A stretch of 39,964 bases of DNA from a virus (Duplodnaviria; Heunggongvirae; Uroviricota; Caudoviricetes): IMG/VR virus record IMGVR_UViG_3300048672_000524, positions 64,001 to 103,964 of that record. One strand, written 5' to 3'. The notes beneath the pieces are model-generated. The model did not search any database and was not told the DNA's origin. It was given only the letters and a program-made list of their open reading frames with translations. The stretch's first letter is position 1. Each line of letters begins with the position of its first letter. Position numbers and translations under genes: made by a program. Below, one piece after another: positions 1,758 through 4,174 of this stretch.

Positions 1758-2246
1758 ATGGCAACAAATAATATAGTACCCGCAACCTCCCATCCTGCCG
1801 AGGTTTTAGAAATTAGCCCAGAAGCATTAGAGGTAGCCAACTGTTACCTACAATTACAAAATGCTAGTAAAGTGGCAGATGAGTTAGGTGTAGAGCCACA
1901 GTTAGTTACCCAGATTCTAGCCCGTAGAGAAGTTAAAGCCTATATAGACCAGGTTTTCTTTGATATGGGTTTTAATAATCGCTTTACAATGCGTAAAGCT
2001 ATGGATGCTATTCTATCTAAAAAGTTCCAGGAAATGGACGAGGCTGGAGTAGGTTCAAATAAAGATATTTTAGAAATCCTAGCGCTATCGCATAAGATCA
2101 CTATGGAACAGATTGATAAAGAAATTCAGCTAGAGAAGCTGAAAGATAAGAGTCTTAAGTCCCAGGTTAATGTTCAGATCAATGATGGTGGTGGTGGATC
2201 AAATTACGCTAATCTACTAGAAAGAATTATAAATACAAATGCATGA
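1758..2246 (+). CDS. terS: terminase small subunit (T5-like)
   Basis: 'SPEALEVANCYLQ...EVKAYIDQVFFDMGFNNR...KKFQEMDEAGVGSNKDILEIL' resembles recalled T5 TerS; start moved from 1635 to the ATG at 1758, downstream of the promoter. Confidence 0.85.
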   Translation: MATNNIVPATSHPAEVLEISPEALEVANCYLQLQNASKVADELGVEPQLVTQILARREVKAYIDQVFFDMGFNNRFTMRKAMDAILSKKFQEMDEAGVGSNKDILEILALSHKITMEQIDKEIQLEKLKDKSLKSQVNVQINDGGGGSNYANLLERIINTNA

Positions 2247-3492
2247 TTTTGCAAATTATAATAAGGGCACGAAGTACCTAGAAAAAGGTAACTTTGAGAA
2301 AGCCGTTATATTTTTAAAGCGCGAGCTAGCAATCAATGAATTCAAAGAGTGCTGGTTAAATTTAGGAAATGCGTACAAGCGGTTAGGAAAGATGCTTGAT
2401 GCATTTAAGTGTTATCAAAAAGCTGCTTCAGACATTCCTTACGCTAATGGTAGCTTTGGAGAGTACTCTCTAGCATATAGTAACCTTGGCTTAATGTATT
2501 ATGCTTTCGGAGATGATGATAAGGCCATCGAGTATTATAGAAAAGCATTAGATTTAGAACCTTCTTTAGCTGATGCTATCTGGAACTATTCATCTGCACT
2601 ACTTAGAAAGCATTGTTCTGGAGTGGGGGTAGATATTGAATCAGCATGGCAGATGTACGAGTTTAGATTCAAAAGATCTAATGCCGTTAGTATTCAAAAT
2701 GATACTGAAATGTGGGACGGTATTAGCTTCGTTGATAAGATCGTAGTCTTAGCTGAACAAGGTTTTGGTGACAAGATAATGTTCGGACGCTATATTCATT
2801 GCTTGAAAGAGTACTGTAATGAAGTATGGGTACAGTGCCCACCTACACTAGATAGCGTATTTTCCGACTTTAAAATCTGTAGAGATGCTAGAGAAAGTGG
2901 TGGTTATGGCTTTCCAATTTGTTCACTTGCTGGACGTTTTGGAATGGTTGATGGTGAATGGTTACGTGGTAAATATTCTGCGAGAGACTTCTATCCGCTA
3001 GACTTGAATGTTGGGGTCGAATGGGCTGGCTCAAAGACTCATGCTAATGACTTAAATAGATCAGTACTACCTAATAGGTTTACTGATATGGTTAAGGTTG
3101 ATGGTAGTACTTTAGGTACTGGACTAAGCTGCGTAAAGTTGTATAGTTTTAGGGACAAGGCTATTAAAGGAATCTATCCTTTAGCTTGTAAGACGTGGGA
3201 AGATACTGGTAAGGCTTTAGCAGGACTAGATTTACTTATTACTGTAGATACCTCAGTTGCGCATATGGCTGGGTCTATGGGAGTGGAAACATGGTTACTT
3301 CAGCCATCGGTTGAGACTGACTTCCGCTGGGGGCACGGTGAAAAGAGTATCTGGTATCCTTCTGTTACTATAATTCAGAATAATGGTAACTGGGACAAGG
3401 TATTTGCCAAGGTTAGAGAAATGCTGATTTCGCGCGGGCTAGAAATGCGCGCTAAGAAACTTGAAAAGGTATTAAATGCTAAGAACGGTTAA
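2239..3492 (+). CDS. TPR-repeat GT-B (GT9/heptosyltransferase-like) glycosyltransferase
   Basis: About 3-4 N-terminal TPRs ('WLNLGNAYKRLGK', 'AYSNLGLMYYAFGDDDKAIEYYRKALDLEP'); catalytic motifs 'AEQGFGDKIMFGRY', 'DLLITVDTSVAHMAGSMG', 'DFRWG...WYPS'. Confidence 0.9.
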   Translation: MHDFANYNKGTKYLEKGNFEKAVIFLKRELAINEFKECWLNLGNAYKRLGKMLDAFKCYQKAASDIPYANGSFGEYSLAYSNLGLMYYAFGDDDKAIEYYRKALDLEPSLADAIWNYSSALLRKHCSGVGVDIESAWQMYEFRFKRSNAVSIQNDTEMWDGISFVDKIVVLAEQGFGDKIMFGRYIHCLKEYCNEVWVQCPPTLDSVFSDFKICRDARESGGYGFPICSLAGRFGMVDGEWLRGKYSARDFYPLDLNVGVEWAGSKTHANDLNRSVLPNRFTDMVKVDGSTLGTGLSCVKLYSFRDKAIKGIYPLACKTWEDTGKALAGLDLLITVDTSVAHMAGSMGVETWLLQPSVETDFRWGHGEKSIWYPSVTIIQNNGNWDKVFAKVREMLISRGLEMRAKKLEKVLNAKNG

Positions 3493-4174
3493 TGGACGCT
3501 GGGGCACGGCAACGTACTTCTCCAAGGACGAATACGTAGGCCGAAGCTTACACAATTATGGCGAGTACAACCCAGATGAAACTGAGATGATTCTTAGTTT
3601 AGCTAATAGAACTTGTTTAGATATTGGAGCTAATATAGGTGTAATTGCACAGGCTCTAGAATATAGCGGATTTCATACTATTGCATTCGAGCCACAGACG
3701 GAAGTATTTAATGTACTTTCAAAGAACTTCGGGGGCGAGAAGCATAACTGTGCAGTAGGATCAGAACAAGGTACCGTAATAATGCCTAAGATGCATTACT
3801 CTGAAAAGGGTAACTTTGGTGGTATTAGTGTTAATACCAGATCACATCTAGGTATGTACAAAGTACCAATGGTCAGTATCGACTATATGGTTAATGACCT
3901 AGATATTGGATTTATGAAGATTGACGTTGAAGGTTTTGAACTAGAAGTACTTAAAGGTGCTGTACAAACTATTGAACGTTGTAAACCTATTCTATACGTA
4001 GAAGACGATAGAATGGAAAAATCAAGAGCACTACGTGAATTTATTAAGAAACTTGGATATAGTATTGAAGAGCATAAACCTACATTGTATCGTGAAGATA
4101 ACTTCTTTGGGCTAAAGAAGAATGTTTGGGATAGAAACTATGCTTCGCATAATATTATCTGTAAGCCTTGTTAA
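3476..4174 (+). CDS. FkbM-family SAM-dependent methyltransferase
   Basis: 'LDIGANIG', 'AFEP', 'MKIDVEGFELEVLKGA' and 'KPILYVE' motifs. Confidence 0.92.
   Translation: MLRTVNGRWGTATYFSKDEYVGRSLHNYGEYNPDETEMILSLANRTCLDIGANIGVIAQALEYSGFHTIAFEPQTEVFNVLSKNFGGEKHNCAVGSEQGTVIMPKMHYSEKGNFGGISVNTRSHLGMYKVPMVSIDYMVNDLDIGFMKIDVEGFELEVLKGAVQTIERCKPILYVEDDRMEKSRALREFIKKLGYSIEEHKPTLYREDNFFGLKKNVWDRNYASHNIICKPC

Follow-up and report, generated by a model that had tools for sequence, protein, structure and literature searches.

The stretch of DNA analysed here (the window; 39,964 nucleotides (nt), positions 64,001 to 103,964 of IMG/VR virus record IMGVR_UViG_3300048672_000524) belongs to an uncultured T5-like phage and carries two enzyme genes between terS and terL, the genes for the small and large terminase subunits. 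The first encodes a 417-amino acid (aa) protein that joins a tetratricopeptide repeat (TPR) domain to a predicted glycosyltransferase (GT) domain, and the second encodes an S-adenosylmethionine (SAM)-dependent methyltransferase of the FkbM family. On the strength of its modelled fold, the 417-aa protein is best explained as an FlmG-type enzyme that is soluble, resides in the cytoplasm and O-glycosylates protein. We tentatively propose that this enzyme O-glycosylates an insert in the tail tube protein, probably with heptose, and that the attached sugar is subsequently methylated. That a virion protein of some kind serves as the acceptor appears rather probable.

The TPR domain occupies the N-terminal part of the 417-aa protein (approximately residues 1–127) and consists of about 3.5 (3–4) TPR motifs, matching TPR_1 with an E value of 9.5e-18. 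Searches with the C-terminal domain (290 residues) alone did not return any Pfam family, PF01075 being absent even at E 10, and a comparison with PDB sequences yielded only IMPDH matches at E ~0.01 that were judged to be spurious. Because sequence searches with this domain gave no family, its fold had to come from modelling. Hundreds of full-length homologues of the protein were found in metagenomes. An AlphaFold2 model generated with 35 homologues as the alignment (41–64% identical) had a predicted local distance difference test (pLDDT) score of 91.6 and consisted of 8 helices followed by two Rossmann-like halves, such that a GT-B, GT9-like domain is predicted at the C-terminus (approximately residues 166–405). 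When the catalytic domain was compared with 48,161 chains using VIA-align, the top matches were WaaF (1psw, Z 14.3), WaaC (2h1f, Z 14.1) and TibC (4rap, Z 13.6), and 3tov also superposed (Z 13.5); root mean square deviations were about 3.1–3.2 Å across 215–228 residues. The best match to the whole protein, identified with Foldseek, was the 596-aa Caulobacter protein FlbA (P21296), which aligned with residues 1–401 (E 2.2e-16, TM-score 0.61). We take P21296 to be FlmG, the flagellin O-glycosyltransferase.

Two motifs of the catalytic domain, G-x-G-D178 and D337-T-S-x-x-H342, were invariant among the 35 homologues. Catalytic roles in WaaC are assigned to the Asp following strand 1 (D13) and to the D-T-G-x-x-H motif (D261 to H266). 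The second phage motif aligned to WaaC D261-T-G-x-x-H266, and D178 would correspond to WaaC D13 provided that model residue 166 maps without gaps to residue 1 of the chain. PF01075 was matched, weakly, by 27 of the 35 homologues at E ≤1 (best 7e-6), and a profile of the family searched against PDB sequences had WaaC as its sole match (E 0.04). The original prediction had described the protein as a TPR–GT-B fusion resembling FlmG; the predicted structure and the homologues agree with that assignment, and the catalytic part can be described more precisely as GT9-like.

The proposed acceptor is a tail tube protein of the T5 pb6 type that contains a ~90-aa insert. The Ser/Thr content of this insert is 25–37%, as an alignment with the tail tube protein of a T5-like phage showed, and it is missing from a cultured T5-like phage. 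The insert was present in 18/18 genomes of the clade that carry the GT gene (GT+) and missing from 18 of the 19 that do not (GT−), the corresponding segment comprising 6 residues or fewer in 17 of the GT− genomes and 36 residues in one. A GT profile search of seven GT− records did not find the gene, and the same profile detected it in all four GT+ controls. On a careful terL tree the distribution of GT required 4 changes and that of the insert 5. In 3–4 phylogenetically independent GT+/GT− pairs the insert was concordant with GT in every case and never opposite; the phage of the window pairs with a sister lacking both GT and insert. This co-occurrence across relatives points to the insert as the acceptor, although it is suggestive rather than proof.

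A fold model of the insert was a small beta domain (pLDDT 76.5). Fold searches with this model returned nothing at E ≤0.001; a weak likeness was seen to small beta-barrel accessory domains, such as those of phage fibres and endosialidases and the I-domain of the P22 coat protein. The Ig-like domain found at the C-terminus of T5 pb6 is missing from the tail tube protein throughout the clade (comparison with L174:7932-9341). In the GT− genomes G028, G030 and G036 the tail tube open reading frames (ORFs) are larger (518–629 aa), and their region at about residues 200–340 is seemingly duplicated.

The original prediction had named several Ser/Thr-rich structural proteins as possible substrates. 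The tail tube insert is the sole one of these that co-occurs with GT across relatives, even though the 3–4 transitions do not bring the association to significance. The 981-aa (34148-37093) and 1217-aa (23969-27622) proteins had no homologue in the near-complete GT+ genomes G001, G002 and G004, nor in the GT− genomes that were compared. As these two proteins did not co-occur with GT, their proposed role as substrates was not borne out. The same holds for the capsid. Its Ser/Thr-rich E-loop insert was rejected as a correlate of GT because the mean Ser/Thr count of the loop was 9.8 in 44 GT+ loci versus 9.1 in 34 GT− loci, and several GT− loci contain the insert. A complex prediction for GT with the capsid precursor (residues 165-657) gave a value of 0.33, where the mark was 0.34 and the controls gave 0.00, and was counted neither way. 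We also considered whether a glycan might replace the missing pb10 decoration protein. This idea was rejected since a pb10 homologue is absent from GT+ and GT− relatives alike; in all of them the portal gene is followed directly by the protease–capsid gene, with no pb10 between. Phyletic profiling of all ORFs in three GT+ versus three GT− genomes did not reveal a further convincing GT-linked gene.

Several observations were made on these proteins and their neighbours. A single 657-aa ORF (7931-9904) encodes both the protease and the major capsid protein, a fusion also seen in GT+ and GT− relatives, and the capsid carries an 11-aa Ser/Thr/Gly insert at the loop tip (approximately residues 415–425) that is polymorphic in the clade independently of GT. 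Two ORFs of 124 aa (37077-37451) and 98 aa lie directly after the 981-aa repeat protein (37077-37744). Weak homologues of both (31–40% identity) were found in GT+ G001, G002 and G004 and not in the three GT− genomes. The 124-aa ORF was seen in GT+ genomes only (31–34% identity), two of the compared GT− genomes being incomplete, and the pattern of both ORFs may be an artefact of divergence or completeness.

Relatives of the GT are encoded on 242 viral contigs identified by an IMG/VR search. In the 72 loci showing both GT and terL, GT was always located directly after terS and before terL. A search seeded with terL identified 12 GT+ loci together with 40 in which the terS–terL slot was empty and 15 in which it held other inserts, and hence we rejected the cassette as a universal feature of the clade. 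In terL trees rooted on the cultured T5-like phage, the deepest branches were GT+ and the GT− genomes fell in three nested groups. From this arrangement we conclude that the cassette is ancestral and mostly vertically inherited, and that it has been lost at least three times; it is therefore dispensable. This history agrees with the earlier view of the two genes as domesticated. The cassette was lacking from cultured Demerecviridae, and a megablast search against cultured phages did not give a match. Literature searches likewise found no description of the cassette, in keeping with the statement that no such system had been described for T5-like phages.

The GT− slots examined in L224/L270 (2759-5413), L246, L215 and L228 contain various other accessory genes. 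One set comprises a metallophosphoesterase with an LpxH-like N-terminus, a GT2 enzyme, a 197-aa protein of unknown function and a class II aldolase; other slots contain a GDSL/SGNH-like 130-aa protein, IscU-/IscA-like genes, small membrane proteins or a GIY-YIG gene. The terS–terL junction is thus a variable island of accessory genes.

The identification of the second enzyme as an FkbM methyltransferase was confirmed, as the 232-aa protein scored above the curated cut-offs for both PF05050 (E 3.6e-20, 73.2 bits; cut-off 22.7) and TIGR01444 (E 2.3e-22, 80 bits; cut-off 37.7). Its gene is less constant than that of the GT, since FkbM is found directly 3′ of GT in ~42 of the 72 loci and nothing is found there in ~26. 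In two loci (L076 and L080) an unrelated class I methyltransferase (Methyltransf_11/23) takes the position of FkbM. This non-orthologous replacement suggests that the methyltransferase works on the product of the GT. Judging from these gene arrangements, FkbM is an optional and replaceable partner of the GT. A phage may have FkbM even where the slot does not hold it, because the complete genome G001, which has no FkbM in its terS–GT–terL slot, carries a homologue (34% identity) elsewhere (G001:C1:103064-103789). Tandem GT paralogues were present in three loci (L043, L058 and L071) and were 35% identical in L043.

The sequence around the cassette is consistent with expression of both enzymes together with the packaging genes. 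As the original prediction had noted, the genes overlap at every junction: 8 nt are shared between the terS stop and the GT start (ATGCATGA), 17 nt between GT and FkbM, and 7 nt between the FkbM stop and the TTG start of terL (TTGTTAA), all read directly from the sequence. The start codons chosen for FkbM and terL are supported by conservation of the N-termini among relatives (MxRxVNGRWG... and MLxxSRxD..., respectively); the true start of terS is probably the ATG near 1758. Two further points of that prediction also held. The GC content of terS, GT, FkbM and terL (0.375–0.396) lies within the range of the neighbouring genes (0.33–0.43), indicating a shared native AT-rich style, and terS adjoins terL in the cultured T5-like phage. 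The four genes and the GIY-YIG gene that follows them likely constitute one transcription unit lying between a promoter-like and a terminator-like site (Table 1). The overlapping genes and the bracketing sites, which are consensus matches, support the suggestion that the cassette is co-expressed with late packaging and virion genes. The GIY-YIG gene (5466-6116) overlaps the terL stop and is carried by some relatives only. Next comes a gene (6238-6675) whose product is homologous to the T5 nicking endonuclease and for which a separate promoter-like site was seen (6181-6209).

Table 1. Positions of the cassette, its transcription signals and the genes proposed to act with it; positions refer to the window unless another record is named
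Feature	Position	Strand	Evidence and remarks
Sigma-70-like promoter consensus 5′ of terS	1515..1543	+	TTGACA-17-TACAAT with TG, 11/12 matches; consensus match only, surrounding region not enriched versus shuffles
terS, small terminase subunit, T5 type	1635..2246	+	phrog_3802, E 3e-34, residues 60-200; relatives match PF26823 (T5_Terminase_small)
417-aa TPR + GT protein	2239..3492	+	TPR_1 match and predicted structure
FkbM-family SAM-dependent methyltransferase, 232 aa	3476..4174	+	PF05050, TIGR01444, phrog_8156
terL, large terminase subunit, TTG start	4168..5469	+	Terminase_6N, Terminase_6C
GIY-YIG homing-endonuclease-like gene, last of the operon	5466..6116	+	PF01541, E 5.5e-8; homing-endonuclease PHROGs
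Intrinsic-terminator-like hairpin	6114..6153	+	17-bp stem followed by a T run; consensus match only
Tail tube protein, T5 pb6 type, 479 aa, proposed acceptor	12451..13890	+	phrog_3575, E 2e-53
Insert of ~90 aa in the tail tube protein, residues ~108-200	12772..13050	+	30% Ser/Thr, predicted small beta domain
Nucleoside diphosphate (NDP)-heptose gene set, outside the window	G000 28399-31344 (L006:10399-13344)	minus	Profile matches

A potential source of the sugar donor was identified elsewhere in the phage genome. The NDP-heptose gene set includes an HldC-like (rfaE_dom_II-like) nucleotidyltransferase of 132 aa (E 9e-34), an HldA-like (rfaE_dom_I-like) PfkB kinase of 259 aa (E 1e-23), a 125-aa cupin and, nearby, a small HAD phosphatase of 101 aa. 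The cupin possibly provides an isomerase or epimerase step; a SIS-type GmhA was not found. An HNH endonuclease gene is inserted within the set, which adjoins ThyX. The kinase–nucleotidyltransferase–cupin trio recurs in GT+ G012 and in many cyanomyoviruses. Because enzymes of the GT1 and GT2 families were not detected in this phage genome, no candidate user of the activated heptose other than the GT9-like protein was detected. The pathway was rejected as an obligate partner of GT, being present in 1 of the 15 other GT+ records. Since the link between GT and the pathway is not general, heptose is favoured rather than established as the donor; judged by gene content, it is the most likely one for the phage of the window. 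A nonulosonic acid, as used by FlmG, is a possible alternative. The NeuB and Pse families were not seen among ORFs of ≥200 aa outside the window that were scanned against Pfam, although a dedicated search for them was not made.

Homologues of the GT were also found in the virion gene blocks of other phages. In the freshwater podovirus-like MW202512.1, the gene for a TPR-GT homologue lies two genes downstream of the one for the major capsid protein; behind it come an inserted endonuclease gene, an FkbM gene and a further GT gene. The cyanomyovirus BUCT-ZZ01 encodes a homologue among its tail-fibre genes. Based on these two genomes, both the GT and the GT–FkbM pairing recur in virion gene blocks of unrelated phages. 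Bacterial homologues were 26–32% identical, with at least 589 matches among species-representative genomes. Flagellin was the most frequent named neighbour of the bacterial genes (3/37 loci, plus one FlgI), and FkbM adjoined the GT homologue in just 1 of 80 bacterial loci. Filamentous cyanobacteria (Microcoleus, Richelia and Oscillatoriales; L105, L117, L131, L133, L136, L148 and L155) contain tandem arrays of 5–8 TPR-GT9-like paralogues.

Taken together, we propose the following course of events. The GT gene would form a single late operon with the terminase genes. The TPR domain of the enzyme would select the protein substrate, and the GT9-like GT-B domain would transfer a nucleotide-activated sugar to it. 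The acceptor would be the Ser/Thr-rich beta domain of the tail tube protein, which would display the sugar along the exterior of the tail. In the phage of the window, the NDP-heptose donor could be supplied by the phage kinase, nucleotidyltransferase, cupin and phosphatase described above, and relatives lacking this pathway would draw their donor from the host pool. FkbM would then O-methylate the attached sugar as an optional tailoring step. Such a modification might shield the virion, increase its stability or influence adsorption. In a broader version of this proposal, an FlmG-type GT, served in some members by phage NDP-heptose and by interchangeable methyltransferases, and a dedicated beta-barrel acceptor domain would form a matched pair that is gained and lost together; we regard this version as somewhat doubtful.

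Several results weigh against glycosylation of the tail tube insert with heptose. The 417-aa protein itself did not match PF01075 in Pfam searches with E values up to 10, and the canonical GT9 enzymes WaaC and WaaF act on lipopolysaccharide (LPS) rather than protein. Characterised FlmG uses cytidine monophosphate (CMP)-pseudaminic or CMP-legionaminic acid, whereas the only sugar pathway of the phage genome is that for heptose. Only 2 of 16 GT+ records, that of the phage itself and G012, were found to carry this pathway; the three relatives with a completeness of ≥90% gave no match, and cyanophages mostly carry it without a GT9-like gene. The neighbours of the bacterial GT homologues are mixed, flagellin lying beside only three of the 37 loci. 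As for the insert, the GT− record G024 retains it, this record being only 43% complete. With so few independent pairs (3–4 transitions), the association between GT and insert falls short of significance (sign test, p = 0.25). Linkage could contribute to the association, because the GT and tail tube genes are ~9 kb apart in the same late module. Finally, location in the terS–terL slot does not by itself imply a function in the virion because GT− slots hold unrelated accessory genes.

A different target could account for some of these results. The enzyme pair might modify a host component, either the LPS inner core or another envelope glycan, or flagellin or pilin, instead of the virion. The benefit to the phage would be that superinfection is blocked or that progeny are kept off cell debris. 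The structural comparisons are compatible with this explanation, GT9 enzymes being the closest solved folds and FlmG the closest whole-protein match, as are the few bacterial homologues located beside flagellin or FlgI genes. The cassette is also dispensable, with its three or more losses, the slot in relatives can hold other envelope-related genes (the metallophosphoesterase and GT2), and the heptose genes of cyanophages are usually read as host-surface modifiers (PMC12801897). We consider modification of the host a serious alternative, albeit an unlikely one. Expression from a late terminase operon in a virulent T5-type phage would leave little time for remodelling of the cell surface, and a protein with a TPR domain and no membrane segment is ill-suited to a lipid-linked acceptor. 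Furthermore, the GT gene is surrounded by virion genes in each of three phage lineages that are not related, and its presence follows that of a domain in a structural protein of the phage, both of which argue for a target in the virion.

If the target is a phage protein, it need not be the tail tube. The GT could act on one or more other phage proteins, such as the capsid, the portal, a terminase subunit or a variable fibre, in which case its correlation with the insert would reflect linkage. The GT gene lies among head and packaging genes, the capsid, fibres and many tail proteins are Ser/Thr-rich, and the tandem GT paralogues of L043, L058 and L071 might between them act on several substrates or synthesise a disaccharide. 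Moreover, mycobacteriophages glycosylate both capsid and tail tube (PMC11600133; PMC12619734). We find this explanation unlikely as well, given that the capsid E-loop insert does not track GT, GT+ relatives do not have the 981-aa and 1217-aa proteins, and the variant tail tube protein is the only one among the structural genes that separates GT+ from GT− genomes. It is highly improbable that the GT instead glycosylates phage DNA around the time of packaging, using the phage NDP-heptose as protection against restriction. Phage clusters that place heptose on 5-hydroxymethylcytosine are known (bioRxiv 10.1101/2023.12.21.572611), ThyX and other nucleotide-metabolism genes are found close to the heptose genes, and the GT gene lies between the terminase genes. 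However, a hydroxymethylase of the thymidylate synthase (ThyA) type was not found in the genome, and the heptose genes are missing from most GT+ relatives. A search for TET/JBP dioxygenases did not give a match, but the control genomes likewise gave none. The TPR domain implies a protein partner, and the known DNA glycosyltransferases are T4 beta-GT-like or GT-A enzymes rather than TPR-GT9 fusions (bioRxiv 10.1101/2023.12.21.572611). We favour the tail tube insert as the acceptor of the GT.

Other features of the window and the genome were recorded during this analysis. Upstream of terS (1-1600) the GC content is 0.45–0.49 and only short overlapping ORFs are present. The final 1.9 kb of the window (38079-39962) has a GC content of 54%, compared to ~38% elsewhere. 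A 628-aa ORF without a PDB sequence match lies here and continues past the edge of the window, overlapped by several ORFs on the minus strand; either strand, or neither, may be coding. On the minus strand at G000 47706-48209 (L007:11706-12209), a 167-aa protein contains the N-terminal domain of a dATP/dGTP diphosphohydrolase (PF18909, E 3.7e-27), a family linked to MazZ of 2-aminoadenine (Z-genome) phages. A PurZ-like gene was not found among the ORFs scanned in the genome.

Mycobacteriophages are, to our knowledge, the only tailed phages in which glycosylation of the virion by phage enzymes has been demonstrated, and there the modification blunts recognition by antibodies. If our proposal is correct, a different class of enzyme, the FlmG/GT9-like TPR glycosyltransferase that bacteria use on flagellin, does the same job in uncultured T5-like phages, a large group with a wide distribution. 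No earlier system for virion glycosylation would be on record from a T5-like lineage, and this would be the first reported case of viral protein heptosylation. It would also provide a purpose for the puzzling 'heptose/LPS' genes of aquatic phages, and the compact enzyme–acceptor pair could be used in glyco-engineering of phage tails.

The closest known counterpart of the phage protein is FlmG of Caulobacter crescentus and Brevundimonas, in which the TPR domain binds flagellin and the GT-B domain glycosylates it (PMC7591256; bioRxiv 10.1101/2022.03.25.485807). Both proteins have an N-terminal TPR domain and a C-terminal GT-B domain. FlmG is a soluble cytoplasmic enzyme that O-glycosylates the subunits of a surface filament before assembly, and the phage protein, judged by its model, is proposed to do likewise. 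The two differ in length (596 aa versus 417 aa) and are only 17% identical. The phage enzyme is encoded in a terminase operon of a phage that does not have flagellin, and it is paired with FkbM, whereas FlmG is not.

The catalytic domain shares the G-D and D-T-x-x-x-H motifs with WaaC, WaaF and TibC, the closest solved folds. It is 7–16% identical to these proteins and ~80 residues shorter than WaaC. TibC and AAH are protein heptosyltransferases, and TibC O-heptosylates Ser with ADP-heptose, which is the chemistry proposed for the phage GT. Unlike the phage protein, TibC does not have a TPR domain and forms an iron-containing dodecamer. With respect to the donor, the heptose sets of cyanomyoviruses (P-SSM2, S-CAM1, S-CAM3 and others) contain homologous kinase, nucleotidyltransferase and cupin genes (35–46% identity), and in S-CAM3 these are embedded among tail fibre and virion genes. 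Cyanomyoviruses are mostly without a detectable TPR-GT9 homologue, and their heptose set is usually ascribed to modification of the host surface.

Mycobacteriophages provide the precedent for glycosylation of a virion, which affects the capsid and tail tube (Freeman et al. 2023, as cited in PMC11600133, PMC12619734). The modification was shown experimentally in these phages of actinobacterial hosts, whereas here it is proposed from genes; three tandem GTs are described there, with no mention of a TPR-GT9 fusion in the text consulted; and the glycans are placed on C-terminal extensions, whereas the acceptor proposed here is an internal inserted domain. The mycobacteriophages carry GT genes and an O-methyltransferase gene together in a dispensable cassette (PMC11600133, PMC12619734). 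The arrangement in the T5-like phage is comparable, in that its GT and FkbM methyltransferase genes adjoin each other near virion genes as in systems of the mycobacteriophage type.

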